The translations under genes and the position numbers were made by a program. From Candidatus Dadabacteria bacterium (lineage in GTDB: Bacteria; Desulfobacterota_D; UBA1144; Nemesobacterales; CSP1-2): DNA of 64,000 bases. The stretch covers positions 640,001-704,000 of the forward strand of contig CAWDVW010000005.1 of assembly GCA_963805855.1 (NCBI GenBank), in the 5' to 3' direction. The first letter of the stretch is position 1, and the number at the start of each line of letters is the position of its first letter. The notes under the pieces were generated by a model, which worked only from the letters and a program-made list of their open reading frames with translations, was not told where the DNA came from and made no database searches. Positions 7,301 through 42,764 of the stretch are shown in pieces.

Positions 7301-10300
7301 GAAAGATTGATAGAAAGGCACTGCCTGAGCCTGATAAAACAAGGCCAGAACTGGGTAGAGAATTTGTAGCACCCCGAACCCCTACAGAGGAGATACTGGC
7401 AGACATATGGGCCCAGGTGTTAGGCATAGAGAAAGTAGGAGTATACGACAACTTCTTTGAACTGGGAGGACACTCACTGCTTGCCACACAGGTGGTGTCC
7501 CGCACAAGAGATGCCTTTAAGGTAGAGCTGCCACTCAGAAACCTTATAGAAGAACCCACTGTTTCTCGGCTGGCAGAGACAATAGACGAGGCGGGAAAAA
7601 GGGGTGAGGGGCTGAAGGCACTTCCAATCATACCCATACCAAGGGATGGAGAACTTCCCGTATCCTTTGCCCAGGAGAGGCTATGGTTCCTCGATCAGTT
7701 TGAGCCAGGCAGCAGTGCTTACAACATGCCTGGGGCAGTGAGGGTAAGGGGCAGACTAGATGTGGAGCTACTGGAGCGCTCGATAAACGAGATAATAAGG
7801 CGTCATGGGTCACTCAGAACTACATTTAAATCAGTGGATGGAAAACCCAAACAGGTAATAGCAAGTGAGTTGAGTTTTGCACTACCAGTGGTAGACCTCA
7901 GAGAATTGCCAGAGGAGAAAAGGGAGTCTCGGGCTAGGACTTTAGCGATAGAAGAGGCAAAGACCCCATTTGACCTTGAGAGTGGTCCTCTACTCAGGGC
8001 TACCGTGCTAAGGCTTGGGGAGGAAGACCATGTCGGTCTATTCACGATGCACCACATCATATCAGATGGCTGGTCTATGGGAATACTCATCAGAGAGGTT
8101 GCGGCAATATATGATGCATATTCCAATGGAAAACCCTCACCCCTGCCAGAACTCCCGATACAGTATGCAGACTTTTCACAGTGGCAGAGACAGTGGCTAC
8201 AGGGTGAAGTGCTTGAGTCACAGCTACAGTACTGGAAACAGAAGCTTGATGGCCTGCCACCGGTTCTTGAGTTACCAACCGATAGGCCGAGGCCAGCTGT
8301 ACAGACATACAATGGGGCACATGAATCATTTGAGCTTTCCTCCGTGTTATCAGAAGCCCTTGGTGAGCTGAGTAGACGGGAAGGAGCTACACTGTTCATG
8401 ACGCTGCTTGGTGCCTTTCAGACACTGCTCTACAGGTATACAGGGCAGGAGGATATAGCAGTAGGTACGCCAATTGCAAACAGGAACCGGTCGGAGATCG
8501 AAGGGCTTATAGGTTTCTTTGTCAACACACTTGTGCTGCGTACTGATTTTTCAGGAAATCCGAGCTTCTTAGAACTATTGAGGAGAGTAAAAGAAACCTC
8601 TCTCGAAGCATACGCATATCAGGACCTACCTTTTGAGAGACTGGTGGAGGAGCTTAATCCCGAGAGGGACATGAGTCACTCGCCACTATTTCAGGTGATG
8701 TTTGTACTGCAGAATGTGCCTACCCAGGCCTTAGAGATAGAAGGCTTGACCTTGAGCCCACTGGAACCGGATAGCAGCAGGGCACTGTTTGACCTGACAT
8801 TAACGGTCAGTGATACAGATCAAGGACTAATGGGATCAATTGAATACAATACTGATCTCTTTGACGATACTACCATAACACTAATGATCGAGCATTTCCG
8901 AATTCTAGTGGAAAACATAGTAAAAAGCCCAGACCAGAGAATAACAGACCTGCCAATATTAACCGAGAAGGAAAGACATAAACTCCTTGTAGAATGGAAT
9001 GACACAAAGAGTGAATATCCCACAGATAAGTGTGTTCATCAATTATTTGAAGATCAGGTCAAGAAGACTCCTGATGCCACTGCAGTGGTCTTTGAAGATC
9101 AGAAACTTAGTTATAAGGAGCTAAACGAAAGAGCCAACCAATTAGGGCACTACCTTAGAGATCATGGGGTAGAACCTGAGTGCCGTGTGTGTGTATGTTT
9201 GGAAAGATCAATTGAGATGATAGTTGGGCTCCTGGGAATACTTAAAGCCGGAGGGGTTTATGTACCTGTTGATCCTTCTTATCCTAAACAACGGCTGGAA
9301 TTCATGCTGGAGGATTCAAAGGTAAAGGCAATCCTAACTCAAGAAAGTTTAGTAGAGATGCTTCCGACTAATGGTGCACAGGTAGTCTGCATTGACACAC
9401 AATGGGAAGGTATCGCTAAGAATACTAAGAAAAACCCAGTAAGTGGGATCACACCCAGCAACCTTGCCTATGTTATATACACCTCCGGCTCAACAGGGCT
9501 ACCCAAGGGCGTCGCAGTCCAGCACCGCTCGGTTGTCAATCATAATTTAGATGTTTCCAAAAGGTATGACCTTAAACAAGATGACCGAGTCCTGCAGTTT
9601 TACTCCATAAGTTTTGACGGCGCCGTTGAGGAGATATTTCCAACATTATTATCAGGGGCTACATTGGCCCTGAGGGGTGAAGAGATTCTTGCCCCGGGGA
9701 CTGAATTCTTAGACTTTGTTGCCAGTAACAAGATAAACGTTGTTAACCTACCCACTGCATACTGGCATGAGTGGGTAAAGGAACTGCCTAGCACAAATGG
9801 CAGGTTTCCGGACTCCCTCCGACTGGTGGTAGTGGGAGGAGACCGGGTCTCGCCAGACAGATATGAGACATGGAGTGAGGTAGTAGATGGTAGAGTGCGC
9901 TGGATTGACACATATGGTCCAACAGAGACAACTGTGATATCGACAATGGCTGAACCTGATGGGATATCAAGGCTCTCCATTGGACAACCTATCGCGAACA
10001 CAACGACTTACATCCTTGATAAACACATGTATCCTGCCCCTCCAGGAGTCCCGGGAGAATTACACATCGGAGGTTTGGGCTTGGCCAGAGGCTATATGAA
10101 CCTTCCAGAGCTCACAGCGGAGAAATTCATACCCAATCCCTTCAGCGACGATTCTGGGGAGAGGCTTTACAAAACAGGTGATCTTGCCCGCTATCTACCA
10201 GATGGGAACATAGAATTTCTAGGCAGGATAGACCATCAAGTTAAGATTCGCGGATTCAGGATAGAAACCGGGGAAGTTGAATCAGTACTGAGAGAACATC

Positions 10301-13300
10301 CATATGTAAAAGATGCAGTCGTTGTAGCAAGGGGGGATGGGAGTGGAGATCCTTCGACTTCGCTCAGGACAGACAAGCACCTGGTGGCATACGTGGTAAC
10401 AGCAGGGGAAAATCAAACCACTGATAGTGAGCTAAGAAACTACTTAAAGCAAAAGCTACCCGAGTACATGGTGCCATCATCATTTGTAACACTGGATGAA
10501 TTACCACTCACTCCAAGTGGAAAGGTAGATAGAAAGGCACTGCCTGAGCCTGATAAAACAAGGCCAGAACTGGGTAGAGAATTTGTAGCACCGCGAACTC
10601 CCACAGAGGAGATACTCTCAGACATATGGGCCCAGGTGTTAGGCATAGAGAAAGTAGGAGTATACGACAACTTCTTTGAACTGGGAGGACACTCACTGCT
10701 TGCCACACAGGTGGTGTCCCGCACAAGAGATGCCTTTAAGGTAGAGCTGCCACTCAGAAACCTTATAGAAGAACCCACTGTTTCTCGGCTGGCAGAGACA
10801 ATAGACGAGGCGGGAAAAAGGGGTGAGGGGCTGAAGGCACTTCCAATCATACCCATACCAAGGGATGGAGAACTTCCCGTATCCTTTGCCCAGGAGAGGC
10901 TATGGTTCCTCGATCAGTTTGAGCCAGGCAGCAGTGCTTACAACATGCCTGGGGCAGTGAGGGTAAGGGGCAGACTAGATGTGGAGCTACTGGAGCGCTC
11001 GATAAACGAGATAATAAGGCGTCATGGGTCACTCAGAACTACATTTAAATCAGTGGATGGAAAACCCAAACAGGTAATAGCAAGTGAGTTGAGTTTTGCA
11101 CTACCAGTGGTAGACCTCAGAGAATTGCCAGAGGAGAAAAGGGAGTCTCGGGCTAGGACTTTAGCGATAGAAGAGGCAAAGACCCCATTTGACCTTGAGA
11201 GTGGTCCTCTACTCAGGGCTACCGTGCTAAGGCTTGGGGAGGAAGACCATGTCGGTCTATTCACGATGCACCACATCATATCAGATGGCTGGTCTATGGG
11301 AATACTCATCAGAGAGGTTGCGGCAATATATGATGCATATTCCAATGGAAAACCCTCACCCCTGCCAGAACTCCCGATACAGTATGCAGACTTTTCACAG
11401 TGGCAGAGACAGTGGCTACAGGGTGAAGTGCTTGAGTCACAGCTACAGTACTGGAAACAGAAGCTTGATGGCCTGCCACCGGTTCTTGAGTTACCAACCG
11501 ATAGGCCGAGGCCAGCTGTACAGACATACAATGGGGCACATGAATCATTTGAGCTTTCCTCCGTGTTATCAGAAGCCCTTGGTGAGCTGAGTAGACGGGA
11601 AGGAGCTACACTGTTCATGACGCTGCTTGGTGCCTTTCAGACACTGCTCTACAGGTATACAGGGCAGGAGGATATAGCAGTAGGTACGCCAATTGCAAAC
11701 AGGAACCGGTCGGAGATCGAAGGGCTTATAGGTTTCTTTGTCAACACACTTGTGCTGCGTACTGATTTTTCAGGAAATCCGAGCTTCTTAGAACTATTGA
11801 GGAGAGTAAAAGAAACCTCTCTCGAAGCATACGCATATCAGGACCTACCTTTTGAGAGACTGGTGGAGGAGCTTAATCCCGAGAGGGACATGAGTCACTC
11901 GCCACTATTTCAGGTGATGTTTGTACTGCAGAATGTGCCTACCCAGGCCTTAGAGATAGAAGGCTTGACCTTGAGCCCACTGGAACCGGATAGCAGCAGG
12001 GCACTGTTTGACCTGACATTAACGGTCAGTGATACAGATCAAGGACTAATGGGATCAATTGAATACAATACTGATCTCTTTGACGATACTACCATAACAC
12101 TAATGATCGAGCATTTCCGAATTCTAGTGGAAAACATAGTAAAAAGCCCAGACCAGAGAATAACAGACCTGCCAATATTAACCGAGAAGGAAAGACATAA
12201 ACTCCTTGTAGAATGGAATGACACAAAGAGTGAATATCCCACAGATAAGTGTGTTCATCAATTATTTGAAGATCAGGTCAAGAAGACTCCTGATGCCACT
12301 GCAGTGGTCTTTGAAGATCAGAAACTTAGTTATAAGGAGCTAAACGAAAGAGCCAACCAATTAGGGCACTACCTTAGAGATCATGGGGTAGAACCTGAGT
12401 GCCGTGTGTGTGTATGTTTGGAAAGATCAATTGAGATGATAGTTGGGCTCCTGGGAATACTTAAAGCCGGAGGGGTTTATGTACCTGTTGATCCTTCTTA
12501 TCCTAAACAACGGCTGGAATTCATGCTGGAGGATTCAAAGGTAAAGGCAATCCTAACTCAAGAAAGTTTAGTAGAGATGCTTCCGACTAATGGTGCACAG
12601 GTAGTCTGCATTGACACACAATGGGAAGGTATCGCTAAGAATACTAAGAAAAACCCAGTAAGTGGGATCACACCCAGCAACCTTGCCTATGTTATATACA
12701 CCTCCGGCTCCACTGGGAAACCAAAGGGGGTACCTATAATCCATAGTTCTTTAGTGAATTTCCTTTGTTCCATGGGTGAGCAACCAGGCCTGACAAGCAA
12801 AGACCTTATGCTCGCAATTACTACTTTGTCCTTCGATATTGCAGCGCTGGAGATTTTTCTTCCTATCATTAAAGGTGCCTGCGTTGAACTGGTAACCCGC
12901 GAGGTCGCATCCTATGGTACTCAGTTGCTAAAAAAGATTACGGATTCCGGCGCAACGGTAATTCAAGCCACCCCAGCTACATGGCGAATGCTTTTAGAAG
13001 TGGGTTGGAGTAATAAGGATAGACCAAAAATACTCTGCGGGGGTGAAGCCCTTTCGAGTGATTTAGCAGATGAATTAGTAAAAAGATCAGATTCACTTTG
13101 GAATGTCTATGGTCCTACGGAAACTACAATTTGGTCTACTATTCACCGAGTCAGTAAAAGAAGTGCTTTCGTTTCAATCGGACGACCAATTGGAAATACT
13201 CAAATATATATCTTGGACAAGCACCTAACCCCTGTGCCCATAGGAGTACCTGGGGAGCTACATATAGGTGGTGCGGGTCTAGCAAGAGGATATTTAAACA

Positions 13301-16300
13301 GCCCGGAACTGACGGTGGAGAAGTTCATACCAAATCCCTTCAGCGATACACCCGGGGAGAGGCTTTACAAAACAGGTGATCTTGCCCGCTATCTACCAGA
13401 TGGGAACATAGAGTTTCTGGGGAGGATAGACAATCAGGTAAAGATACGTGGTTTCAGGATAGAAACAGGGGAAATAGAATCTATACTTAGAGAACACCCC
13501 GCTGTAAGAGATGCGGTCGTTGTAGCAAGGGGGGATGGGAGTGGAGATCCTTCGACTTCGCTCAGGACAGACAAGCAGCTCATCGCGTATCTGATTTATC
13601 AAGGGGGGCAGGAAGTAATTGTAAGTGAGGTGAGGGGGTTTTTAAGGGAAAAGCTACCTGAGTACATGGTGCCATCATCATTTGTAACACTGGATGAATT
13701 ACCACTCACTCCAAGTGGAAAGGTAGATAGAAAGGCACTGCCTGAGCCTGATAAAACAAGGCCAGAACTGGGTAGAGAATTTGTAGCACCGCGAACTCCC
13801 ACAGAGGAGATACTCTCAGACATATGGGCCCAGGTGTTAGGCATAGAGAAAGTAGGAGTATATGACAACTTCTTTGAACTGGGAGGACACTCACTGCTTG
13901 CCACACAGGTGGTGTCCCGCACAAGAGATGCCTTTAAGGTAGAGCTGCCACTCAGAAACCTTATAGAGAAACCCACTGTTGCTCGACTAGCAGAGATAAT
14001 AGATGAGGAGAAGAAAAAAGGTGAGGAACTAGAAGGTCCACCTATTAAACCAATACCAAGGGATATCGAACTTCCCGTATCCTTTGCCCAGGAGAGGCTA
14101 TGGTTCCTCGATCAGTTTGATCCAGGCAGCAGTGCCTACAACATGCCTGTAGCAGTGAGAGTAAGGGGCAGACTAGATGTGGAGTTACTGGAGCGCTCGA
14201 TAAACGAGATAATAAGGCGTCATGGGTCACTCAGGACTACATTTAAATCAGTGGATGGAAAACCAGTACAGGTAATAGCTCCAGAGTTGAGTTTTACACT
14301 ACCAGTGATAGACCTCAGTGAATTGCCAGAGGAGCAAAGGGAGTCTCGGGCAAGGACTTTAGCGATAGAAGAGTTTACTAAACCATTTGACCTTGCCAAA
14401 GGTGCACTCATAAGAGCTAAGGTTCTGCATATGGGGGAAGATGAGCATGTGGTTTTATTTACGATGCACCACATCATATCAGATGGCTGGTCTATGGGCA
14501 TACTCATCACAGAGGTTGCGGCAATATATGATGCATACTCCCGTGGGGAACCCTCACCCCTGCCGGAACTACCGATACAATATGGAGACTTTTCACAGTG
14601 GCAGAGACAGTGGCTACAGGGTGAGGTGCTTGAGTCACAGCTAGGGTACTGGAAACAGAAGCTTGATGGCCTACCACCGGTTCTTGAGTTACCAACCGAT
14701 AGACCGAGACCAGCTATACAGACATACAATGGGGCACATGAATCATTTGAGCTTTCCTCCGTGTTATCAGAAGCCCTAGCTGAGCTGAGTAGAAGGGAAG
14801 GAGCTACACTGTTCATGACGCTGCTTGCTGCCTTTCAGACACTGCTCTATAGGTATACAGGGCAGGAGGATATAGCAGTAGGTACGCCAATAGCAAACAG
14901 GAACCGGTCGGAGATCGAAGGGCTTATAGGTTTCTTTGTCAACACACTTGTGCTGCGTACTGACTTTTCAGGAAATCCGAGCTTCTTAGAACTATTGAGG
15001 AGAGTAAAAGAAACCTCTCTCGAAGCATACGCACATCAGGACCTACCCTTTGAAAAGCTGGTAGAACACTTAAGGCCGGAGCGTGACCTGAGTAGAACAC
15101 CGTTATTTCAGGTGTTTTTCAATATGCTAAATGTCAAACTTGAGCAACAAAACGTAAAAGGGCTCGCCATCGAGGATTTCCCATTATCAGATATGGAATC
15201 AAAATTTGATTTAACCCTCTATGCCGATGAAGGACAAGGGAGAATCAGCTTTTTGTTTGCCTACAATAGGGACCTTTTTAACCGAGATAGGATCCATTGT
15301 TTAACACAACAATTTCTCCATCTTCTCAATCAAATCGCCAAAGAGCCAGACAAAAAGCTTTCTACCTATTCCCTTGTAGCCCCAGAGCATAGGGACATAA
15401 TTCCAGATCCCTCCATCATCATAACTGAGCCTGATCTTGAACCAGTTACTTCTACGTTTTTAAGAATAGCCGAAACGCTTCCAAATCATATAGCAGTTTC
15501 TCAGGGAAACCGAAACTGGACATACGCGAAACTTGCATGGAGTTCTTCTATTATTGCGAGAACCCTTCGATCAAGGGAATTCCAGAAAGGCGATGTAGTT
15601 GCCATACATGGAGAGAAATCCATTGGTTTAATTGCAAGTGTGATAGGGGTACTTTTAAATGGCTGTGTAATCCTTACTCTGGATCGACAACTACCTGACG
15701 ATAGAAAACAATTGATGCTCAGGGAGGCAGGTGTGAAAGGTCTGGTATTAGTCGGTAGTAACGACTATGAACATAGATGGTCCGATAAGCAAGTAGGGAT
15801 AAAGGTCATAAGAGTCGACAGTTGGGATGGTCTGCCATGTGATTTTGATAGCAGTTCGCTCTGCGAGCGTGTTCAATTGCCGTTGATCAAGTCAAGTGAT
15901 CGCGCCTATATTTTCTTTACCTCAGGAAGCACAGGTTTACCTAAAGGCATATTGGGTTGGCATAAGGGCTTAAGCCATTTCATTAACTGGCAACATAACG
16001 CATTCAATATTAATAGCCAAGATAGAGTTTCTCAACTTATAAGTTTATCCTTCGATGCTGTGCTAAGAGATATTTTCTTGCCTTTGACAAGCGGCGCAAC
16101 TCTTTGCTTGCCAGAAGAAAGTGACGATATAGCAGCGAATGACGTGTTAAATTGGTTGGATGTGCAAAAGGTAACGGTACTGCATACCGTACCTAGTATA
16201 ACGCAATTCTGGCTGACAAATCGCGCTAGTGAAAGATCATTAAGATATCTCCGATATGTGTTCTTTGCGGGCGAACCTCTCACAGATAGTCTGGTTAATG

Positions 16301-19300
16301 ATTGGAAAAATTCATTACACTATGATGGGAAAATCGTGAATCTTTATGGTCCCACTGAGACGACGCTAGTAAAGAGCTACTATGAAGTTCCACAAGAGGT
16401 TTCACCTGGAATACAACCAATAGGCAAAGCGATGCCCCAGACACAGGTTCTTATTCTAAATACTGACTATGAGCTATGCGGCATCGGTGAGCCTGGAGAG
16501 ATTGTAATTCGTACGCCTTTCCGCACCCTTGGATATATCAATTCACCTGACGAGCAGCTGAAGCGCTTTAGAAACAACCCTTTCAGCAAAGATGAGAATG
16601 ATGTTGTCTACTTAACAGGTGATCTCGGCCGTTATAGGCCAGATGGCTCTCTCGATATTCTTGGCCGCGTCGATGATCAGCTAAAGATCAGAGGGGTTCG
16701 AGTAGAACCTTCAGAGGTGACGGCGACACTCTCACAGCATCCTGATGTACAGGCATGCTTTGTTACTGAATGGAAAAATGAGAATGGAGAAAGGGCGCTA
16801 GTCGCTTATGTTGTAACCTCTGATAAACAGGATCTTAGGATAGACAATATAAGAAAGTTCCTAATCAATAGACTGCCATTGGCATTTGTCCCTTCGGTTT
16901 TTGTAACAATTGATCAACTTCCGTTGACCGCCAATGGTAAAGTAGACCGTCAAGCGTTACCATCTCCCCTTGTCTCAAAGATAGAGATAAAAAGTGATTT
17001 CGTATCTCCTCGCAACACTACTGAGAAAATTCTAGTTGATATATGGATTCAAGTGCTAGGTCATAACAAAGTGGGAATTCATGACAACTTTTTTGATCTT
17101 GGCGGACACTCCCTTCTGGCTACGCAAATTATATCTCGCGTCCGTGAGGCCTTCAATGTGGAGCTACCCCTGCGCGGTCTTATCGAAGAGCCAACAATAT
17201 CTAATATGGCAAAGGCGATCGAAGAAGCCAAAAATGTTGAAAGTGAGACTCAGGCACCTCCAATTAAGCCGATTCGACGAGAGATCGAACTTCCCGTATC
17301 CTTTGCCCAGGAGAGGCTATGGTTCCTCGATCAGTTTGATCCAGGCAGCAGTGCCTACAACATGCCTGTAGCAGTGAGAGTAAGGGGTAGACTAGATTTG
17401 AAGGTACTGGAGCGCTCGATAAACGAGATAATAAGGCGTCAGGGGTCACTGAGAACTACATTTAAATCAGTGGATGGAAAACCCAAACAGGTAATAGCAA
17501 GTGAGTTGAGTTTTGCACTACCAGTGATAGACCTCAGAGAATTGCCAGAGGAGAAAAGGGAGTCTCGGGCTAGGACTTTAGCGATAGAAGAGGCAAAGAC
17601 CCCATTTGACCTTGAGAGTGGTCCTCTACTCAGGGCTACCGTGCTAAGGCTTGGGGAGGAAGACCATGTCGGTCTATTCACGATGCACCACATCATATCA
17701 GATGGCTGGTCTATGGGAATACTCATCAGAGAGGTTGCGGCAATATATGATGCATACTCCCGTGGGGAACCCTCACCCCTGCCGGAACTACCGATACAAT
17801 ATGGAGACTTTTCACAGTGGCAGAGACAGTGGCTACAGGGTGAGGTGCTTGAGTCACAGCTAGGGTACTGGAAACAGAAGCTTGATGGCCTACCACCGGT
17901 TCTTGAGTTACCAACCGATAGACCGAGACCAGCTATACAGACATACAATGGGGCACATGAATCATTTGAGCTTTCCTCCGTGTTATCAGAAGCCCTAGCT
18001 GAGCTGAGTAGAAGGGAAGGAGCTACACTGTTCATGACGCTGCTTGCTGCCTTTCAGACACTGCTCTATAGGTATACAGGGCAGGAGGATATAGCAGTAG
18101 GTACGCCAATAGCAAACAGGAACCGGTCGGAGATCGAAGGGCTTATAGGTTTCTTTGTCAACACACTTGTGCTGCGTACTGACTTTTCAGGAAATCCGAG
18201 CTTCTTAGAACTATTGAGGAGAGTAAAAGAAACCTCTCTCGAAGCATACGCACATCAGGACCTACCCTTTGAGAGACTGGTGGAGGAACTTAATCCCGAG
18301 AGAAACATGAGTCACTCACCACTTTTTCAGGTGATGTTTGCACTGCAGAACACACCGATGCAATCCGTAGACCTGGGAGACCTGGTGATTAGTCCGGTGG
18401 ATATGGAGAGAGAAACCGCGAAGTTTGATCTTACAATGTTCATGGTGGAAACGGACGGGAGACTAATGGGGTCAATCGAATACAACACCAACCTCTTTAA
18501 CGATACCACCATAACTCGAATGATAGAGCATTTCCGAACTCTGGTGGAAAACATAGTGAAAAGTCCAGACCACAGAATAACAGAGCTGCCCATATTAAAC
18601 GAGAAGGAAAGACATCAACTCCTTGTGGAATGGAATGACACTAAGAGGGAATACCCCAGAGAAAGGTGTGTACATGAACTATTTGAGGAACAGGTGGAAA
18701 AGACTCCGAACAATATCGCGCTTGTGTTCGAAGATCAAAAACTTACTTACAAAGAATTAAACGAGAGATCCAATCAGTTGGCTTATTATCTGATTGAACT
18801 TGGAGTTGGACGGGAAACACTGGTTGGAATATGCATGGAGAGATCATTGGAGATGATCATAGGTCTATTGGGAATACTCAAGGCCGGCGGGGGCTATGTG
18901 CCGCTTGACCCCTCATATCCCAAGAAGCGGCTAGAGTTCATGATAAAGGATTCACAAATAGATATGCTTCTTACTCAGACAAGCTTGGTCGAAACGGTAC
19001 AAGGGGATGAATTGACAATGACTTGCCTTGACGAGCAGTGGAATGATATCGCCACGAGGAGTAAGAGAAACCCCTCAAGCCGTGTATCCACAGATAACCT
19101 TGCCTATGTCATTTATACCTCAGGCTCCACAGGCAATCCTAAGGGTGTGGGAATCGCACATAGCGCCCTCCATAACCTTCTTTTATGGCAACTCTCAAAT
19201 CTCTCGTCATCCCTCAATGCCAAAACGCTTCAATTTTCTCCTGTAAGCTTCGACGTCTCCTTTCAGGAGATATTATCAACCTTGCTCGGTGGAGGGTCGT

Positions 19301-22300: not shown

Positions 22301-25300
22301 CCGAAGTCCAGGTATCCCGAGATAACCTTGCCTATGTCATTTATACCTCAGGCTCCACAGGCAATCCCAAGGGTGTTCAAATCCATCATAGATCACTGAC
22401 AAATTTCCTAATTTCATCTTGCAACCAGTTGAGATTAACATCGGGTGAAATAATACCTGCAATTAATACCTATTCATTTGATATCTCTATTCTAGAAATT
22501 TTTGTACCACTTGTTACCGGCGCCAGAGTAGGTTTGATTAGTCACGAAATTGCAACCGACGGATCACAATTGTCAAAAAAGATTAATCAATTAAGCGCAA
22601 CGATGATTCACGCTACACCTGCAACCTGGAAACTGCTTTTTGCAGCAGACTGGAAGAGTCCAAAAACATTCAAATTACTATCTGGTGGTGAGGAATTAAT
22701 TAGAGATTTGGCGAATCAACTGATTGAGAGGTCGAATTCGCTATGGAACGTGTACGGGCCCACTGAGGCTACTGTCTATTCTACATTTTACCAAGTTGCT
22801 AACCAAAACGGTTCTGTACCGATAGGCCGACCGATTGCCAACACCAAAATCTTTATTCTGGACAAGAGCTATAATCCAGTTTCTATAGGTACAGCGGGAG
22901 AGCTTCATATCGGAGGAGACGGACTGTCTCGTGGCTATCTGAACCGACCCGATCTGACAGCCGAGAAGTTTATACCGAACCCATTTAGTGAAGAGCCCGG
23001 CGAGAGGCTTTACAAGACAGGAGACCTTGCGCGGTACCTGCCAGACAGCAACATAGAATTTCTGGGAAGAATAGACAATCAGGTAAAGATAAGGGGATTC
23101 AGGATAGAAACAGGGGAAATAGAATCAATACTAAGAAAACATCCATACGTAAATGATGCAGTTGTTGTAGCAAGAGAGGACGCACCTGCCGAAAAACGCC
23201 TTGTCGCATATTTATTGGTGGATAGCGAGCATAAGCCTGTTATAGAAGAACTAAGGGCTTTTTTAATGGAAAAGCTTCCTGAGTATATGGTGCCATCATC
23301 CTTTGTAACACTTGATGAATTACCACTAACCCCAAGTGGAAAGGTGGATAGAAAGGCACTGCCTGAACCGGATAAGAAACGACCGGAAATCTTACAAGAA
23401 AAATACGTGGCACCGAGAAATCCAATAGAACAGGAATTTACAGATATTTGGAGTGAAGTCCTTGGAGTTGACCAGGTTGGAATTTATGACAATTTCTTTG
23501 ATTTGGGAGGTAATTCCCTCCAGGCAACCAGACTGATATACAAAATATCTTCAGACCTGCAATACGAAGTTTCGGTTAAAACACTATTCTTAAATCCTAC
23601 AATCTCTGACCTTGTAAATGCTATTGCGAAACCTTCAGCTGAAGTCGAAGATAAAAGACCCTCAGTTTCGAACGAAACCACTAGCAAAGAACTTGTAAAC
23701 AAAGATCAAGCAAGCCGTTCTAGATTGAATGATTATATAGAAATTGAACGACGTCCACTACTGGACCTTATTAAAGATGGGGAAATTAAGCAACTAGATG
23801 CAGCAGCTATCGGTTACTTATCAAGCTCAATACTGGATCACCCAAGTATTGACAGGAAAATGGTGGACGATTTTTTTAACAATAAACCGATAATATCGAA
23901 TATTATGGATTTAGATCTAGGTCGTATTGCAATAATATTAATACCATTTTTCGAATCAGAGCTATATGCCGATCAGGATTCCTTAGTTGACATGATAATA
24001 GACTCGCTCGAATTAGCGGGCTTAACGGGGGCGAAAACCGTTTCTCTAACGGGTCTCATACCCTCTGCCACTGGTTACGGCCGTGCTATCTACGATGCAG
24101 TCGATGGTCGCACTGATTTACCTCAGATCACAACAGGACATGCAACGACCACATCTTCAGTTGTACTTCAAATAACCAGAGCACTTAGGGAAAGTGGGCG
24201 GGAGCTGAGCAATGAAAAGGTAGGTTTTTTAGGTCTGGGATCGATAGGAATGGCAACCCTTAGTTTGATGCTGAAAAGCCTCCCTCATCCATCGGAAATT
24301 ACTTTGTGTGATCTATACAGCAAGCATGATACCTTAGAGAAGCTAAAAAACAGTATTATTAGAGAATTTGGATACTGTGGGAGTATACAAATAGTAGGTT
24401 CCGGTGTTAGGGTCCCATCAGAATTTTATGAAAATTCTCTAATCATCGGAGCTACAAACGTACCAGAAGTCATTGATATTAAACTTGCAAAGCCCGGTAC
24501 GATAATTGTCGACGATTCAGCACCGCACTGCTTTTCCGTAGAGGACGCCATTCGCAGATTTGAAAAGCACGTTGATATAATTTTCACAGAGGGTGGCGTT
24601 CTACAATCACCCAAGCCGGTTTGCCATTTACGGTATCTCCCAGAGATCGCAGAAAGACTTATTGAGAAAGGCCAATTAGAAGCATTCGCAGAACAAGACT
24701 CATCGCAAATAACCGGCTGCGTGTTATCCGGCCTACTCTCATCTCGTTTCGACAATCTAAAACCTACATTGGGTTTAGTTGAAGCTGCAACTTCCTGCAA
24801 ACATTATGAAATTCTTAAAGATTTAGGGTTCGATGCGGCGGAACTACATTGTGGGAATTATGTCCTTGAAAAAGAAGCAGTTAAGGCATTCAGGCAAAAC
24901 TTTAGTATACAGAATACTAAAATCAAAAAGGATATAAGGATAGGTATAGAAAAATCTCCACTTGTGACCATCCAACCACTAGGTTCGAAGCCCCCCTTCT
25001 ATTGTGTTCATGCCATTGGTGGGAGCGTTTTCTCATATTATGACTTGTCAAAATTTCTCGGCAAAGATCAACCCTTTTACGGGCTAGAATCGGTGGGTAT
25101 GGAAGGTGAAGAGCCTCCTCTCTCGAACATCGAAAGAATGGCCGCACTGTATATTCAAGCTATTCAATCGGTTCAGTCGGTTGGTCCTTATAGCATAGGA
25201 GGATGGTCTATGGGAGGATTAATTGCTTATGAAATGGCTCAGCAATTGTTAGCTCAAAAGGACACAGTGTCACAATTAATTCTGTTTGACTCTCACTCTC

Positions 25301-25929
25301 TCAGAAGAAACAGAAAGGCAACAAAAAGATATTCGAACAGACTTCTACGAAATTTTTTAGAAAAGCTTTGCTATTACTTTAAAAACCCGAACACTTCATT
25401 AGATCACGTCATAGACGATTTACCTGACGAGGGTTGGTCAGAGGAAATTATATACGAAAATGAATTAAGTAAGGGTAATCGCGTAATCCGTCCCTATAGA
25501 GAATTAGCCAAGATTCTCGGTATCAATTCCAGTGAGCTTAACTTATTATTGAATCATATTTTAGAAGGCGATTCAGGTAAACCCTTAATCCGGATCTGGA
25601 ACAATCTTGAACCTGAAAATGAAACAAACAGAATGATTGAACTCCGGCATGCTATCCGAAGGTTGGACATATATCTTAATAACTACAGGGCAATGCACAA
25701 ATATAAGCCTAAACCTTATCCAGGGCAATTAACCCTCATTCGTGCTAAGGGTCACTTTAGCATTTTCGAAATAGATAAGTCCTTGGGGTGGGGAACCTTA
25801 GCCAAAGGCGGCGTTGAAGTTCACATTGTTCCCGGGGATCATTATACTATATTTAAAAGGCCGAACGTCAATCTCTTGGCTGAAAAACTAAATGCATGCC
25901 TTAACGATGCAAATGGCACCGGAATTTAA
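4396..25929 (+). CDS. NRPS, 6 modules: C(DCL)-A-T, five C(LCL)-A-T, then an NAD(P)-binding acyl-ACP-reductase-like domain and TE
   Basis: [14 protein letters not shown] in the first C domain, five HHIISDGWS, six A3 motifs (Y/F)TSGSTG, five GGHSL plus one GGNSL, Rossmann GLGSIG, TE GWSMG...GDH. Start overlaps the upstream NRPS stop. Confidence 0.97.
7400..9491 (+). repeat. ~2.1-kb direct repeat copy 1 (T-C-A N-terminal part)
   Basis: Appears identical to 10619-12710 (offset 3219). Alternative-frame ORFs 7628-7813, 7803-8399, 8015-8371 and 8820-9023 translate identically to their counterparts. Identity stops inside YTSGSTG. Confidence 0.93.
10348..10371 (+). repeat. In-frame 24-nt repeat insertion (DPSTSLRT), module 2 A domain
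   Basis: gatccttcgacttcgctcaggaca. Absent at the homologous site of module 1 (7141: gatgggagtggagagaag). Confidence 0.85.
10619..12710 (+). repeat. ~2.1-kb direct repeat copy 2
   Basis: Matches 7400-9491. Confidence 0.93.
13546..13569 (+). repeat. In-frame 24-nt repeat insertion (DPSTSLRT), module 3 A domain
   Basis: Identical to 10348-10371. Confidence 0.85.
19993..20016 (+). repeat. In-frame 24-nt repeat insertion (DPSTSLRT), module 5 A domain
   Basis: Identical to 10348-10371, followed by ggc. Confidence 0.85.
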
Positions 25930-26355: not shown

Positions 26356-27939
26356 ATGAAGCGAATATTTGTCAAGTTCATACCGTTAATTCTTATCGCA
26401 TTCTTAAATTTAGGAGGCTGCGACAACGGAGGTCAAACTACTGCCCTCTGGATCGTCGCCGGACAAAATTTAAATAACACACGTCATCAATCAAAGGAAA
26501 CGATAATAGGTCCTTCAAATGTAGTGAATCTATCAATCAAATGGATTTTCACAACGGGAGGAGACGTTTCTGCCACTCCTGCTGTAGATGAGAATGCAGT
26601 CTACGCGCCAGATTGGGGCGGGAACCTTTTCAAAATAGATAGAAAAAGCGGTGCGGAAATATGGTCGCGCCGTATATCTGATTATACGGGAATACCGAAT
26701 GACCTATCTCGTACGACACCAGCAGTTTATGGCACCAAGCTCATATTGGGAAATCAGGGCGGCGGCGCACATGTGATAGCCGTCAACAAGGATACTGGGG
26801 ATCTTATTTGGATTACAAAAGTTGATGACCACGAGGCTTCTATAATCACTCAATCGGCGGTTGTACATGATGACCGCGTCTATGTGGGCATCTCTTCATT
26901 TGAGTTTGTTACGGCTATCGATCCGGAATATCCATGCTGCACATTTCGTGGAAGTGTTCTAGCCTTAGATTCAAATAACGGAGAGATCCTATGGAAGACT
27001 TACATGACACCATCGACTGATAAATTCCCCGGCTATAGCGGAGTTGGCGTTTGGGGCAGCACATTAGTCGTGGACTCGAAACGCAACCTTCTTTACGTTC
27101 CGACTGGTAACAACTACACAGTCCCGGAGGAAGTGCTCGAATGCGTTGAAGAAGCAAATAATCAAGGCATCGATCCAAGACTATGCAATGATCCCAGTAA
27201 CCTTTTTGATGCTGTAGTAGCCCTTGACCTAGATAGTGGAGAGATAGTATGGGGCCAGCCGATGATTCCATTCGACGCCTGGAACTTTTCATGCCTAATA
27301 GGGGGTATAAACTGCCAATCGTCAGCGGGAGTTGATTACGACTTTGGGCAAGGCCCCATTTTGTTCTCAATTAAAGGTGCTGACGGATTATTTATCGATC
27401 TGTTGGGGGCTGGTCAGAAAAGCGGTCAGTATTGGGCACTTAATCCTGATAACGGGGAAGTTATGTGGGTGACTCAGGTCGGGCCCGGTGGTATTACCGG
27501 GGGCCACCAGTGGGGTTCCGCTACAGATGGTGAACGTATCTATACGGCAATATCAAACTCAGGACGAGTAGAATGGGAACTAATGGAGAACGGACAGGGA
27601 ACCGGTGAGTTCACTCGAGGAGGGTTTTGGAGCGCACTCGATCCCACTACAGGAAAGATTCTTTGGCAGACGCCTGACCCAAACGCTGCCCTTGACCAGG
27701 GTGCGGTAACTATCGCTAATGGGGTAGTTTTTGCAGGTTCCCTCGCCCCTGATCCCGATGATAGTACTTTCTTCGCTTTGGACGCCGCATCAGGTGATAT
27801 CCTTTGGGAGTTTCCAAGCGGCGCATCTGTAAACTCTGGAGCTGCCGTAGTTGATGGCACAGTTTATTGGGGCTCCGGCTATTCACGCCTGAACTATGCA
27901 ACTGGTAACAACGAAGTGTACGCGTTTGAGATAAGATAA
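26356..27939 (+). CDS. PQQ-binding beta-propeller lipoprotein (polyvinyl-alcohol dehydrogenase-like)
   Basis: Lipobox-like LNLGGC, repeated ALD..TG...W PQQ-repeat motifs, vicinal CC in CCTFRGSV, GVWGS, DYDFGQGP, GQKSG. Confidence 0.8.
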   Translation: MKRIFVKFIPLILIAFLNLGGCDNGGQTTALWIVAGQNLNNTRHQSKETIIGPSNVVNLSIKWIFTTGGDVSATPAVDENAVYAPDWGGNLFKIDRKSGAEIWSRRISDYTGIPNDLSRTTPAVYGTKLILGNQGGGAHVIAVNKDTGDLIWITKVDDHEASIITQSAVVHDDRVYVGISSFEFVTAIDPEYPCCTFRGSVLALDSNNGEILWKTYMTPSTDKFPGYSGVGVWGSTLVVDSKRNLLYVPTGNNYTVPEEVLECVEEANNQGIDPRLCNDPSNLFDAVVALDLDSGEIVWGQPMIPFDAWNFSCLIGGINCQSSAGVDYDFGQGPILFSIKGADGLFIDLLGAGQKSGQYWALNPDNGEVMWVTQVGPGGITGGHQWGSATDGERIYTAISNSGRVEWELMENGQGTGEFTRGGFWSALDPTTGKILWQTPDPNAALDQGAVTIANGVVFAGSLAPDPDDSTFFALDAASGDILWEFPSGASVNSGAAVVDGTVYWGSGYSRLNYATGNNEVYAFEIR

Positions 27940-28111: not shown

Positions 28112-28861
28112 ATGCAAAATTCAGAACAAAAATGGCGTAACCCGCCGAGCAAATTAAATTTAGGACGCCATGAAATCCATGTCTGGCGTGCTGACTTAAA
28201 TGTTACCAAGCAACTATTAAAGAAACTTAAAGACACCTTACAAAAGGTAGAAACGGATAGGGCCAATCGCTTTCATTTTGAAAAGGACCGACACCATTTC
28301 ATTGCTGCCAGAGGTGCTCTTAGAGTGATCCTCGGAAATTATCTTAATATACAGCCACGCAATCTGAACTTCACTTACAATACACATGGAAAACCAAGAA
28401 TTGCCAATGAACTGGATCAAAATCATGTCAACTTCAATTTATCCCATTCGCATGGGATTGCACTATACGCCGTAACCTTGGGTAGGGAGGTAGGAATTGA
28501 TATTGAAAGGGTCAGGACAAATTTGTCTTTCGAGAAGATCGCAAAGCGATTCTTCTCACCCTTGGAGTTCCAGACGCTCATGGCATTGCCTCTCTCAGAG
28601 CGTGTAGCAGGCTTTTTTAATTGTTGGACTCGTAAGGAGGCCTATATAAAGGCTATCGGAGAAGGTCTTTCCATCCCCCTAGATCAGTTTGATGTGACAC
28701 TGAATCCAAACGATGAAGCTAAAATTATTAGTACTAAAGGAGACTCGATTTTGGCAGCCCGCTGGTCATTGTATGCTTTGATACCAGCGCCCGGATATGT
28801 CGGAGCTTTAGCCGTGGAGGGAAAACACCTCACGATCAAATATTGGATGTGGACAGGTTAA
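28112..28861 (+). CDS. sfp: Sfp-type 4'-phosphopantetheinyl transferase
   Basis: GKP, FNLSHS, VGIDIE, FFNCWTRKEAYIKAIGEGL. Confidence 0.95.
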   Translation: MQNSEQKWRNPPSKLNLGRHEIHVWRADLNVTKQLLKKLKDTLQKVETDRANRFHFEKDRHHFIAARGALRVILGNYLNIQPRNLNFTYNTHGKPRIANELDQNHVNFNLSHSHGIALYAVTLGREVGIDIERVRTNLSFEKIAKRFFSPLEFQTLMALPLSERVAGFFNCWTRKEAYIKAIGEGLSIPLDQFDVTLNPNDEAKIISTKGDSILAARWSLYALIPAPGYVGALAVEGKHLTIKYWMWTG

Positions 28862-34367: not shown

Positions 34368-35036
34368 TTACGGCTCCCTTATCGGATTGCAATCGGTGCC
34401 ATCCCAGTTACCCCTAACTACATCTACCCTCCCAAGCGATGGTGATAGCTCAACAATCCCGCATGTGTTAACCCTGGACGTGACGGTTGGCGTTACTAAC
34501 ATTGAGACCGTCTCCAGATCGGTATCAGGCTCCGGATCAGTCGTTACCGGCTCGCCATTTTGATCTACCATAAATCCCTTTGGACCGAATCCACATCGAA
34601 GAGGGTCGGTTTCCCCCATGTCAGCCATATTTAAGTTAAAGTTCTTGTTAATTTTCTTTGTCTGACTGGATACGATACACCATTTATCAGACCCTCTGTT
34701 GCTATTACCCCTTTCGAGCGTAATCGTCAGCGTGTCATCCCCCAGGGCAAAGTCGTTATAATTATTACAAAATTTGCAATTTGGGTCAGTGTCATCAATA
34801 TCATCACACTGCGAGAAGACAGCCCTGTATTCCACACCGTCCCTCGCCGATTTCATCTTTGCCATCTGAAGTGTAGAAGATATGTTCCTCGTGATATCGT
34901 TAATTGAACGGCTAACAGTAAACCGGCTAACCATAAGCCCTGCGATACCGGCAAGTAAAGATATAACACTGGCTACAATAAGGGCCTCTATAATTGTCAT
35001 GCCTCTTTGCCTTTCTTTACTATGCATGTTAGTCAT
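34368..35036 (-). CDS. FimU/FimT-like minor pilin (copy 1)
   Basis: G|MTIIE cleavage motif, SSTLQMAKMKSARDGVEY, C-terminus GNWDGTDCNPIREP. Confidence 0.87.
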   Translation of the reverse strand: MTNMHSKERQRGMTIIEALIVASVISLLAGIAGLMVSRFTVSRSINDITRNISSTLQMAKMKSARDGVEYRAVFSQCDDIDDTDPNCKFCNNYNDFALGDDTLTITLERGNSNRGSDKWCIVSSQTKKINKNFNLNMADMGETDPLRCGFGPKGFMVDQNGEPVTTDPEPDTDLETVSMLVTPTVTSRVNTCGIVELSPSLGRVDVVRGNWDGTDCNPIREP

Positions 35037-35042
35037 TATAGC

Positions 35043-38000
35043 CTATAATAGCTCTTCCCAAAAATGTGTCTGCGTTCTCGTAGCGAGCTGGGGAAGCTCC
35101 AAGACGAGGAAATTCGCTCCGCCTGCTGCCGCACTACCCGAAAAGGCAACAGTCATGATCACAGAACCACGCGCTCCGAAGGTAAGCTGTGCCGGCGTCG
35201 GCATACCAAACGCAACTGTTTTTCCCACAGTAGCCGCCTGCTGGTCGGCATCTCCACCAAGAAGACTCGCCGCTCCCGGCACCCTTGCCAGAGCGGGCTC
35301 TCCTGAAAGATAATCGAGAGCAAAGAGTCTGCCCTCACCGGCGCCCGCCGCGCAAACATTCTCAGTCTCAGGATCCGGCGCGAATGTCGTAAAGAGTAAT
35401 ACTCTTTCTATGACAACAGGCGTGCCAAACCCCTTTTCTCCCATCGGACTTTCAACACTGGGATCAACCGACGTGTCAATGTTATCGGGGAATCTCACAA
35501 TAAACTCACCCTGGTTGTTTACTGTACTGCCGCCTTCCGTTGTAAATTGATCGGTAACCCCACCAAGGGGCACAATATCAATTATCTGCCCTGCGTTGAA
35601 ATCCGCCTCGGTTTTAGTAGCGGCAGGCACTGCGGAGCCCCCGGCGAGAAAAGCCGGGATAAAGGTATCTATGAAGTTATAGAGCTTTCCAAATTGGAGC
35701 GTACTGGTCGGGTTTCTTCTATTCCCAGTTAAGAATATAATATGGACCTGGCCAAGATCATCAAACACAGCCGTAGGCGCAAAGAATATGGGCGTCCTCG
35801 GACTTATAAAGGTTATAGGATCAGGTATTAGGGTCGAAGGATCCAAGCACTGAGTAATGTCCGCGGTGGCACAGAATGCTATATCACCCGTCCAATCAGG
35901 CGCGGATATATCAGCATCGCCTCTGAGACCGGTCTGAGACAAATCATCGGCGACGATCGGGAGGGAGATATCGAATCTCCAAAGCCTGCCGCAGGTATCG
36001 CCCGCGTAGGCTACATCCATATACCCATCGGCATTCAGATCAAAGACCCCCACTCTTGCTGACATATCGCATTCCATCTCAGCTAAATCTGGATCAGCGA
36101 GAGTCGAAGGTATTGGATCATCAGGGTTGAATTTAAAGACTATCTTCCCTGTGGGTATATCTATAGCATAAAATGCATCACCGAAATTAACCCCATCAGT
36201 CGGATCGGTGTCAAGGGGATCCATCCCCCCGCCCACAAACATCAACCACCTATCAACTATTACGTTGCTTCCCTGTTCCTTCATCCTCACCCTTCCAACG
36301 GTCGGTTCAGACCATGTGTTTCCAAAATCATGGTCGAACAGCGTCCAGAGGTGGGTGGGATAGTCCGGACCGTTTGTCAGATGCTTACCGATATTGCTGC
36401 AATCGGTATTCACGCCCCCGGCACATTCGACATTTGTCACATCGAGGGCAGTATAGGCTCCACCCCCGTTTCTATACCCGGATATATACAATGTGTGCCA
36501 TTCGCTTCCGCAACTATCAATCACGCCATCCAGAGCGCTGCTAGCTCCGGTACAGATTGGATCATCTATCCCATTCGAATAACCATCGACAAATATATCC
36601 GCAACCAGAGCCGACCCGTCCATGAAAGATCTCTGCTCCTTCTTCTCCGCTACAAAAGTCTTGAAGTCTCCAAACCTGTAATCCGGAGGAGTTATATCAG
36701 AAGGTGATTCAGGACCATTATCTGAAATAGAGTCCGGAAGAAAGGAAGGCGGTGCAATCCCGAATAGCTCAACGCCGGTGCCCGGATTAAAGAATGGGAT
36801 CGACTCCTCCTCAAGATTAAAGGGATTCGTTACCGTTCCCCCTAGAGGGATAGTTACTAGCTCCCCACCGTGAAATGCATGCATAAATCCGTCATTCGCA
36901 CCCACATACACCGCTGCAGACCTATCCCTGAACTGAGATGCGAAGGCCTGAAAACCAATATCAAAGAAAAGAGGCGACGGCGTACCCACCAGCACGGGCG
37001 CAGAGTGGAATATATCGCCGAGTTTCACCTGGCAGTGGCTATAGTCATCATTAGCCGTATTTCCATCGGCAAGATCAGGACAACTATACCCCATGGTATC
37101 AGCCGCAAACCCTCCCGTAGTTGGAGAACCAAGCGGGTCGCCCAGTGGGAAGATTTTCGTGTTACCGGTCATGAAATCGATTGTTTTGTCTCTTATACAG
37201 TTTTCAACGCAGTCTAAACAAGGTTGTAGTACTGGCTGCTGAAGATTTCCAGTTATAAGATCCACCGGACAATCGCCAGAACAATCCGTATAGCCGTCCG
37301 GAGGGTCTGCCGCGCAAAAGGTCGGTATCGGATCGGTTACATCAGCGTCACTTATCCCAAATTGAGCCAGATCCAGATCGGTGTTGAGTAGATTGAAATC
37401 AGCCTTATCCCCCTCATATCTGAGTCTTAAGACCTCTGAAGTGGCCAGGTCTATCTCCTCATCGATAGTAGTCGGGTCTGTTCTTATAACCGTATACAGG
37501 TGTCTCGGGTCAGACGATATGTCCCTCTCTGTAAGCAGCTTACCCGAGTCCCAGAAAAACTGCCTCGCATTTGCGTTCAGGATTCCCCTGTTGCTGAAGA
37601 TCCTGTGGGCATCAACGACCGCAGCATCAGTGAGGTCGGCACCCGGGTCTGGTTTTCTTATAACAACCTTTGAACCCGGATTCCCCGGTTCATCCACAAA
37701 ACCAAAGAGGGCAAGCCTCCCCTGCCAAAGTCTCGCCGGAGGATTAGGCGTCAGGTTTGCCAGCAGTATCCTGTCGCTTACCGCGACGCTTGCCGAGGAG
37801 GTAGGCGCTGTGGGTGCCACACCGGACGTGGGGAAATTTCCGATAAACTCGAAAATCGCATCAAGGGCCTCTATCAGCTCGGATGGATCGTCAACGAAAA
37901 AGGCAAAACTTTCGCCTAACACGGTAGAGTCGAGGGGTCCCGCGGTCTGGAAAAAGGTATTGTTAAAAATAGGGTTGGTCTGAAAAGTACATTCGCCCGT

Positions 38001-39929: not shown

Positions 39930-39969
39930 TCAATCCTCCTTTAGAGAAGCCTTCCTTAAACATATCGTT

Positions 39970-40596: not shown

Positions 40597-40614
40597 ACTT
40601 ATACCTCCTCTAAT

Positions 40615-41937: not shown

Positions 41938-41958
41938 TAACGCCTCCGTATTTTTTAG

Positions 41959-42732: not shown

Positions 42733-42764
42733 ATACTCCACCCCGGCGAGTCTATACAAAACAT

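Follow-up and report, generated by a model that had tools for sequence, protein, structure and literature searches.

The nonribosomal peptide synthetase (NRPS) discussed here, a protein of 7177 amino acids (aa), is encoded in a stretch of 64,000 nucleotides (nt) from a Candidatus Dadabacteria bacterium (GenBank assembly GCA_963805855.1, contig CAWDVW010000005.1, positions 640,001 to 704,000 of the forward strand; hereafter the window). Between its last thiolation (T) domain and its thioesterase (TE) domain lies a member of the family of putative terminal amidation domains (TADs), and this membership is secure. The domain itself is not new, being an ordinary representative of a family for which crystal structures are already available (2024-25). 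What sets the protein apart is the succession T-TAD-TE: a single T domain serves both the TAD and the TE, with linkers of ~26-30 aa. This order may be undescribed. Both the TAD and the TE are under purifying selection.

A TAD-family domain between the last T domain and the TE

An earlier note on this DNA had singled out a domain of ~390 aa between the last T domain and the TE, at 23730-24905, and these limits proved right to ~10 nt: the structural alignment described below covers residues 3-399 of the model of the excised domain (P0002), equivalent to ~23725-24915 of the window. All six motifs quoted in the note are in frame and in the order given there, namely a 10-residue string at aa 6548 (nt 24037), ITTGHATT at aa 6578 (nt 24127), a second 10-residue string at aa 6609 (nt 24220), IVDDSAP at aa 6704 (nt 24505), EGGVL at aa 6732 (nt 24589) and a third 10-residue string at aa 6772 (nt 24709). 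Two of the accompanying coordinates, 24130 and 24232, mark the TTG and the first Gly of the GxGxxG motif and not the starts of the quoted strings; the Cys placed at 24718 is exactly there, at nt 24718-24720.

No Pfam family model matches the domain, the one hit being a sub-threshold match of 2-Hacid_dh_C at the Rossmann motif (E 0.025-0.081; 14.4 bits vs a cut-off of 25.1). NCBIfam is also without a model for it and matches only PigE (E 6e-8) and SbnB (E 0.0027). The claim that the domain is not a reductase (R) domain of the short-chain dehydrogenase/reductase (SDR) type was correct: neither NAD_binding_4 nor Epimerase of Pfam matches it even at E<=10, whereas the same tool gives E 5.5e-67 for the true R domain in P0091, one of the TAD proteins described below. 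SDR-type R domains resemble the TAD in depending on a nicotinamide cofactor and in their place behind the last T domain, but belong to another fold class and employ Tyr/Lys-based chemistry, as opposed to the Cys-based chemistry of TADs.

The identity of the domain emerges from comparison with solved structures. With the whole domain as query, phmmer against PDB sequences returned two constructs of the CarI TAD at E 5.7e-121 and 9.9e-121 (PDB 9e4s/9e4u and 9e4x/9e50/9e56), deposited under the name "amino acid adenylation domain protein". A Foldseek search of the PDB with the model described next retrieves these entries at TM 0.96 and 49-50% identity (E 1.7e-56), and their title reads "TAD from Carmabin Biosynthetic Pathway". 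The AlphaFold model of the domain, built with a 27-sequence alignment, has a mean pLDDT of 93.4 and a pTM of 0.93, and VIA-align superposes it on the CarI TAD with Z 57.5-58.8 and a root-mean-square deviation (rmsd) of 1.3-2.1 Å over 383-393 residues. The domain is thus a member of a published family. The undescribed chemistry expected of it in the earlier note is accordingly for the most part in print already, with crystal structures and with amidation as the family's putative reaction.

TADs were defined as the ~400-aa C-terminal domains of CarI, VatR and HcaD, and the carmabins, vatiamides E-F and hectoramide B end in primary amides (bioRxiv 10.1101/2024.10.28.620694). According to the main text of that paper, the CarI TAD binds NAD(H) and not NADP(H), a selectivity ascribed to Asp2102, the residue that favours NAD(H) and discriminates against NADP(H)/CoA. 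The invariant Cys2238 is 4 Å away from C4 of the nicotinamide, and this residue can be crosslinked by the phosphopantetheine of the peptidyl carrier protein (PCP, or T) domain and forms a disulfide with dephospho-CoA (bioRxiv 10.1101/2024.10.28.620694).

P0002 aligns with CarI at one constant offset (+1904), and all five features named in the TAD paper fall on corresponding motifs of the window's domain. Family conservation was assessed in 253 aligned TAD regions, comprising the window's own and the 252 of 256 matches that contain the core. The Thr-Thr-Gly motif, which in CarI sits at the junction of the lobes and positions the catalytic Cys (bioRxiv 10.1101/2024.10.28.620694), is retained here; in P0002 numbering T139 is found in 251/253 TADs, and Gly140, His141, Arg280 and Asp286 are each present in 253/253. 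The cofactor site is predicted from its sequence to be of NAD(H) type, with Asp6639 in the place of the Asp2102 that excludes NADP(H) in CarI. The NADP(H) part of the NAD(P)H dependence proposed earlier is thus not supported. Among the named motifs, the sole departure from CarI is an Ala in place of Gly2172, a residue that makes backbone contacts in CarI (bioRxiv 10.1101/2024.10.28.620694). At this fourth position of the loop, Ala occurs in 128/253 TADs and Gly in 97/253, and Ala is therefore a common variant of the family. Cys6775, the equivalent of CarI Cys2238, is, by analogy with CarI, the presumed acyl-accepting nucleophile beside the nicotinamide C4.

Outside the family, the best fold is that of the cyanobacterial acyl-ACP reductase (AAR), represented by four entries (PDB 6jzq, 6jzu, 6jzy and 6jzz). 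Foldseek gives E 4e-16 to 4e-15, TM 0.61-0.64/0.70-0.73 and 16-17% identity; VIA gives Z 29.2-29.7 with an rmsd of 3.2-3.5 over 313-314 aa, and the folds that follow are generic two-domain dehydrogenases with Z <=14.5. At the level of sequence, AAR is not seen: a profile of 27 TADs scores E 0.94-0.98 against AAR chains, and no AAR model is among the NCBIfam matches at E<=10, although HMMER filters may hide very weak ones. The authors of the TAD paper had themselves remarked that the TAD fold resembles AAR, with Cys2238 spatially equivalent to AAR Cys294 (bioRxiv 10.1101/2024.10.28.620694), and the equivalence of the window's Cys with Cys294 is taken from that paper through the alignment with CarI and not from a residue-by-residue superposition.

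TAD and AAR thus share a two-lobed build in which the C-lobe is of Rossmann type and the cofactor tunnel ends at an equivalent Cys. AAR acts on a carrier-protein thioester, and the TAD presumably does likewise. They differ in sequence (17-18% identity) and in cofactor site, which is of NADPH type in AAR and apparently of NAD type here. AAR is free-standing and makes fatty aldehydes from acyl-ACP, whereas the TAD is embedded in an NRPS; AAR is also described as being without the first strand, helix and dimer interface of the TAD (bioRxiv 10.1101/2024.10.28.620694). The parallel with AAR drawn in the earlier note is therefore correct as a statement about fold and active site, and does not extend to AAR membership by sequence, cofactor type or context. 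The structure search that the note had proposed found AAR as the next-best fold after the TADs, and not an unrelated fold; the Cys whose conservation it had asked about is present in 253/253 TADs, and nothing in the sequences contradicts the note on these points.

The sole non-TAD relative with known chemistry that can be detected by sequence is PigE's N-terminal domain, with the 27-TAD profile giving E 5.6e-8 to the 4ppm chain. The NCBIfam PigE model (NF053554) matches the window's domain with 31.5 bits against a family cut-off of 850. The N-terminal region of PigE is described as a thioester reductase that resembles AAR, contains a conserved Cys and is fused to a transaminase (PMC8341465). 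PigE acts in the 2-methyl-3-n-amyl-pyrrole (MAP) pathway of prodigiosin, and the alignment covers the TTG-like motif and the Rossmann lobe; the transaminase couples it to nitrogen chemistry. PigE differs in being fused to a pyridoxal phosphate (PLP) aminotransferase and not to an NRPS, and in producing an amine via an aldehyde.

Family architecture and the history of the T-TAD-TE order

The survey of proteins sharing the domain that the earlier note had suggested was made with HMMER across all of 1.84 billion cluster representatives, and returned 910 representatives (of clusters at 50% identity) with E<=1e-3, of which 481 reach E<=1e-30. Among the best 150 representatives, 142 end <=30 residues past the TAD, four have tails of 32-52 aa and four have tails of >100 aa. 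Pfam finds a TE in two of the long tails (P0049 and P0084), an SDR-type reductase in P0091, and no recognisable domain in P0138. TADs are not confined to NRPS modules, as in P0004 (1969 aa) the TAD ends a polyketide synthase (PKS) module composed of ketosynthase, acyltransferase, ketoreductase and acyl carrier protein domains (KS-AT-KR-ACP-TAD). In the 7177-aa NRPS the TAD is not C-terminal, being followed by 337 aa of linker and TE. The main text of the TAD paper does not use the term TAD-TE, and its four mentions of a thioesterase all refer to something other than a TE placed behind a TAD (bioRxiv 10.1101/2024.10.28.620694).

A second search used the TAD and TE together as query and is biased towards the fusion. 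Of the 120 proteins listed, five contain PF00975 (P0153, P0049, P0154, P0155 and P0156), with 71-99% of the query aligned; for the remaining 115 the coverage is 51-55%, which corresponds to the TAD alone. The listed TAD matches include proteins of Moorena, Microcoleus, Laspinema, Nostoc, Gemmatimonadota and Binatia, and VatR (P0252) matches the query with 48% identity. The closest among the matches listed is P0153 (75% identity over 99%), from a metagenome-assembled genome (MAG) labelled Thermodesulfobacteriota, and a search for related loci with a single protein found one locus, the contig of P0153 (L001). With CarI, VatR and HcaD, the window's protein shares the fold, a T domain followed by a ~30-aa linker, the TTG, GxGxxG and DDSxP motifs, the NAD-selecting Asp and the Cys. 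It differs from them in that their TADs are terminal whereas a TE follows here in the same polypeptide, and in that the host is not a cyanobacterium, its nearest named relative being the Thermodesulfobacteriota MAG.

As an observation in its own right, many cyanobacterial TAD-ending NRPSs of ~1645 aa (P0167, P0175, P0184, P0188, P0190 and others, from Microcoleus, Laspinema, Nostoc and Dolichospermum) carry PilZ (PF07238) and TubC_N (PF18563) in their precomputed domains. A receptor domain of the cyclic di-GMP type inside an NRPS is odd.

The T-TAD-TE order is stable within the genus. In all three of its genomes, T, TAD and TE lie in one continuous open reading frame (ORF), and either sister genome (G001 or G002) shows 74% identity across query residues 2-734/736. 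The TAD part was found in none of the other 38 relatives searched, three of which match the TE part alone. The TAD motifs and the Ser, Asp(+27) and His motifs of the TE are retained in 3/3 genomes of the genus, and pairwise ratios of non-synonymous to synonymous substitution (dN/dS) against the two sister genomes are 0.17-0.18 for the TAD and 0.24-0.25 for the linker and TE.

On a larger scale, the order is found in several separate lineages of TADs. The TE-bearing rows are scattered over the trees: in trees of TAD regions (FastTree, with Shimodaira-Hasegawa-like support only), the four TE-labelled rows of a 143-row tree need three changes, of which at least two are forced by well-supported branches, and the seven TE-labelled rows of a 248-row tree need six, of which at least three are forced. 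A TE comes behind the TAD in three or more separately supported lineages and an SDR-type R domain once, and close sisters such as P0154 and P0035 differ only by the presence of the TE. The most economical account is that ordinary T-TE termini several times either received a TAD or lost their TE.

That an apparently intact TE follows the domain, giving the protein two candidate off-loading domains, had been recognised correctly in the earlier note, and is indeed the unusual part. The TE retains Ser6938 within GGWSMGG, Asp6965 at +27 and His7149 within PGDH, and its Ser-Asp-His triad is therefore complete. Its best PDB relatives are thioesterases of NRPSs, PKSs and fatty acid synthases (FASs), and it is of an ordinary NRPS type. 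A TE subtype specialised for TADs was considered and rejected: of the best 120 homologues of the TE, taken from proteins of 591-2000 aa only, phmmer at E<=1e-3 found a TAD in none but the orthologue P0153, leaving 119 without one.

The residue offered to the TAD was approached through the last adenylation (A) domain, from which nine pocket positions were read, anchored on the FD, GGE and NxYGPTE motifs. A code was obtained for 174 TAD proteins; 78 of 252 gave none, being fragments or without the A5 motif, and were left out. Among the strings recovered are those that we take to be the standard codes for Asp, Orn, Leu, Ser, Thr, Phe, Tyr and Gln, and such recognisable codes suggest that the method of reading the pocket works. 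The last A domain of the 7177-aa NRPS and that of P0153 read DILHLGVVY. This is close to the DILQLGVIW of module 3 of the same NRPS, which we assume to be a Gly-type code, and the last A domain would thus be Gly-like here, in place of the Tyr/Val-type domains of CarI, VatR and HcaD.

A connection between the presence of a TE and the last residue was also considered. The code DVGE[IV]GSID, presumably of Orn type, is found in 4/5 TAD-TE proteins with a readable code vs 7/169 terminal TADs. Three of the four Orn-type TAD-TE proteins belong to a single clade in which the sisters lacking a TE have the Orn-type code as well, and the lineage of the window is Gly-like; the connection is therefore not decisive, and the codes yield no rule. 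The commonest pocket before a terminal TAD is DLTK[IV]GHVG (20/169), which we take to be an Asp code, followed by DVEAIGN[VI]G (12/169). The abundance of the former fits the remark in the TAD paper that many TAD clusters look like lines for beta-hydroxy-Asp siderophores (bioRxiv 10.1101/2024.10.28.620694).

Possible working of the terminus

We consider it probable, though far from certain, that the TAD of this secure family member acts in amidation and that the TE is retained as a second outlet or for an editing function. By analogy with the CarI work, the phosphopantetheine arm of the T domain would enter the NAD tunnel, and the finished (lipo)peptide would be handed to Cys6775 as a thioester beside the nicotinamide, as the crosslink and disulfide structures of CarI suggest. 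The thioester may then be resolved to a C-terminal primary amide, a step for which the products of three characterised pathways offer a weaker analogy. The TE would represent the older outlet, kept when the TAD entered a T-TE terminus, and could either form a co-product by hydrolysis or cyclisation or free T domains that have stalled or been wrongly loaded.

Several observations weigh against amidation by the TAD. The link between TADs and amides comes from three closely related Moorena pathways. The main text of the TAD paper reports that CarI and VatR gave no release in vitro, whether NAD(H), metals, ammonia or one of the 20 amino acids was supplied, and that no TAD activity has been reconstituted to date (bioRxiv 10.1101/2024.10.28.620694). 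Where the chemistry of a close relative is known, it is that of a thioester reductase, as in AAR, the nearest in fold, and in the N-terminal part of PigE, the nearest in sequence. No glutaminase, amidotransferase or NAD synthetase was found among the ORFs scanned with Pfam (>=150 aa in the window, >=200 aa in the 20 kb upstream). Moreover, the amidation model does not account for a TE placed immediately after what is supposed to be a release domain; among the best 150 representatives, an unbiased list, TAD is followed by TE in two, and in P0091 (778 aa) the thioester reductase domain already mentioned comes directly after the TAD. Such examples of a TAD with a TE or R domain hint that release is not necessarily the work of the TAD.

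Reductive release of the AAR type, in which the peptide would pass to Cys6775 and be reduced by NADH to an aldehyde, either as the final product or as a bound intermediate that is then aminated and re-oxidised, is in our view unlikely. It draws on AAR being the closest fold outside the family, on the thioester-reductase domain of PigE being the sole detectable relative with known chemistry, and on the slightly better binding of NADH by the CarI TAD (dissociation constant 3.5 µM vs 11.6 µM for NAD+); a redox-neutral route of reduction, amination and oxidation is also among the options listed in the TAD paper (bioRxiv 10.1101/2024.10.28.620694). However, the aldehyde release proposed in the earlier note is unsupported by the three TAD pathways with known products, which according to the same source are all terminal amides and not aldehydes or alcohols. 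That source further reports that NADH gave no release in vitro and argues that the conserved Asp stacked on the nicotinamide favours NAD+. Release of a free aldehyde would also leave the TE idle, yet the TE is under purifying selection.

An arrangement in which the TAD of a T-TAD-TE terminus is not the releasing enzyme and cooperates with the TE, through an on-line NAD-dependent step or by delivering ammonia to the acyl-TE, also seems improbable. The on-line version, acting on the T-bound chain, could for instance be an oxidative cleavage that sacrifices a Gly-like C-terminal residue and leaves the peptide as its amide; the TE would then remove the stub, in the manner of MtaG of myxothiazol biosynthesis. 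Cooperation would suit a single T domain that serves two domains over short linkers, the repeated occurrence of a TE, or once of an SDR-type R domain, behind a TAD, and the resemblance of the last A domain's code to the presumed Gly-type code. MtaG, cited in the TAD paper, provides a precedent that combines Gly, an oxidising domain and a TE (bioRxiv 10.1101/2024.10.28.620694).

The likeness to MtaG (A-MOx-T-TE, where MOx is a monooxygenase domain), which carries out glycine-dependent amidative release, lies in a terminal amide with a TE placed after the amide-forming step and in a Gly logic, given that the last A domain here is presumably Gly-like. MtaG differs in using a flavin monooxygenase domain, which is absent from the domain annotation of the 7177-aa NRPS, and the resemblance is one of logic only. 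Against cooperation, Gly-type last A domains also precede eight to ten terminal TADs without a TE, close TAD sisters (P0154 vs P0035) differ just by the TE, and the TE is not a TAD-specific subtype. In addition, the last residue stays in the products of CarI, VatR and HcaD according to the main text of the TAD paper (bioRxiv 10.1101/2024.10.28.620694), and the conserved Cys, together with the AAR fold, speaks for a transfer of the acyl group to the TAD. The broader proposition that T-TAD-TE lines show the TAD not to be a release domain itself, and to be an NAD-dependent partner of the TE acting on a sacrificial Gly-like residue or delivering ammonia, we hold to be quite doubtful. If true, it would constitute a new flavin-independent route to peptide amides, and terminal TADs would need to be re-read.

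It is very unlikely that the TAD is a decaying or purely structural insert and that the TE, complete and of an ordinary releasing type as it is, releases the product alone, since every TAD motif is intact here and in both sister genomes and the constraint on the TAD is stronger than that on the TE.

The surrounding cluster and the value of the locus

The NRPS gene is one continuous ORF with six GGxS carrier-domain motifs, the last at aa 6371, and the features discussed above are collected in Table 1. It is preceded by two ABC-transporter genes, then by a gene for an NRPS of 3070 aa, and then by one for an NRPS of 2002 aa that reaches into the window; these two lie at 9182-18394 and from 18391 onward in the upstream region (L003), the second entering the window as far as 4399. 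The 3070-aa NRPS starts with a condensation (C) domain and has an A domain with an embedded methyltransferase (MT), and the domain order of the 2002-aa NRPS is C-A(MT)-T-C.

Table 1. Positions in the window of the NRPS gene, of its terminal domains and motifs, and of the two genes that follow it; residue numbers are those of the 7177-aa protein unless P0002 (excised TAD) or CarI is named
Feature	Position (nt)	Strand	Remarks
Whole NRPS gene, 7177 aa	4396..25929	+	C-type (7), A (6) and T (6) domains, with TAD-TE at the end
Last T (PCP) domain	23434..23625	+	Pfam PP-binding E 2.2e-13, residues 212-275 of translated segment P0001
Phosphopantetheine Ser6374 of last T domain	23515-23517	+	FFDLGGNSL motif
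TAD-family domain (P0002), aa 6442-6840	23719..24915	+	N-terminal lobe and NAD-type Rossmann lobe, AAR-like fold
Thr-Thr-Gly, T6579-T6580-G6581	24130..24138	+	P0002 138-140 = CarI 2042-2044
GxGxxG dinucleotide-binding loop, G6613-G6618 (GLGSIG)	24232..24249	+	P0002 172-177 = CarI 2076-2081
Asp6639 (P0002 D198) = CarI Asp2102	24310..24312	+	Asp in 251/253 TADs
Asp-Asp-Ser-Ala-Pro loop, P0002 265-269	24511..24525	+	CarI DDSG-cisPro 2169-2173, by sequence alignment
Cys6775 (P0002 C334) = CarI Cys2238 = AAR Cys294	24718..24720	+	Cys in 253/253 TADs
Type-I thioesterase (TE) domain	24994..25926	+	Pfam PF00975 E 1.9e-30
TE triad Ser6938, Asp6965, His7149	25207, 25288, 25840	+	Aligned to TE of PDB 4zxh, 7crn
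Pyrroloquinoline quinone (PQQ)-type beta-propeller gene	26356-27939	+	PQQ_2 E 1e-29; weak match to beta-alanine-activating-enzyme propeller
Sfp-type phosphopantetheinyl transferase (PPTase)	28112..28861	+	Pfam ACPS E 8e-20

Downstream, the PPTase gene is kept in the sister genome G002, where it is 73% identical and lies directly 3′ of the TAD-TE gene. The beta-propeller gene, which sits between the NRPS and PPTase genes in the window, was considered as a partner or nitrogen source of the TAD and rejected: G002 has no such gene between its NRPS and PPTase genes, and the propeller gene was therefore left out of the system.

Some further observations concern the NRPS genes and their surroundings. 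A 119-aa specificity segment is identical between the first A domain of the 3070-aa NRPS and the 2002-aa NRPS, and nearly identical in module 2 of the 7177-aa NRPS, which reflects module duplication. Antisense ORFs of 198 aa repeat every 3198-3219 bp along the 7177-aa NRPS gene. At 34368-42759 on the reverse strand, the window contains an ordinary type IV pilus block of minor pilins and PilY1, unrelated to the NRPS and comprising N_methyl pilins, PilX_N, PilW and a 1628-aa PilY1-like protein.

The value of the locus lies in its architecture, in which one carrier feeds a TAD and a normal TE and both have been kept by selection. It also widens the range of TADs to a lineage that is not cyanobacterial and has small genomes. 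T-TAD-TE termini constitute a natural experiment on what a TAD does to a thioester, and the TE provides a built-in read-out of a kind lacking in the inactive CarI and VatR constructs.

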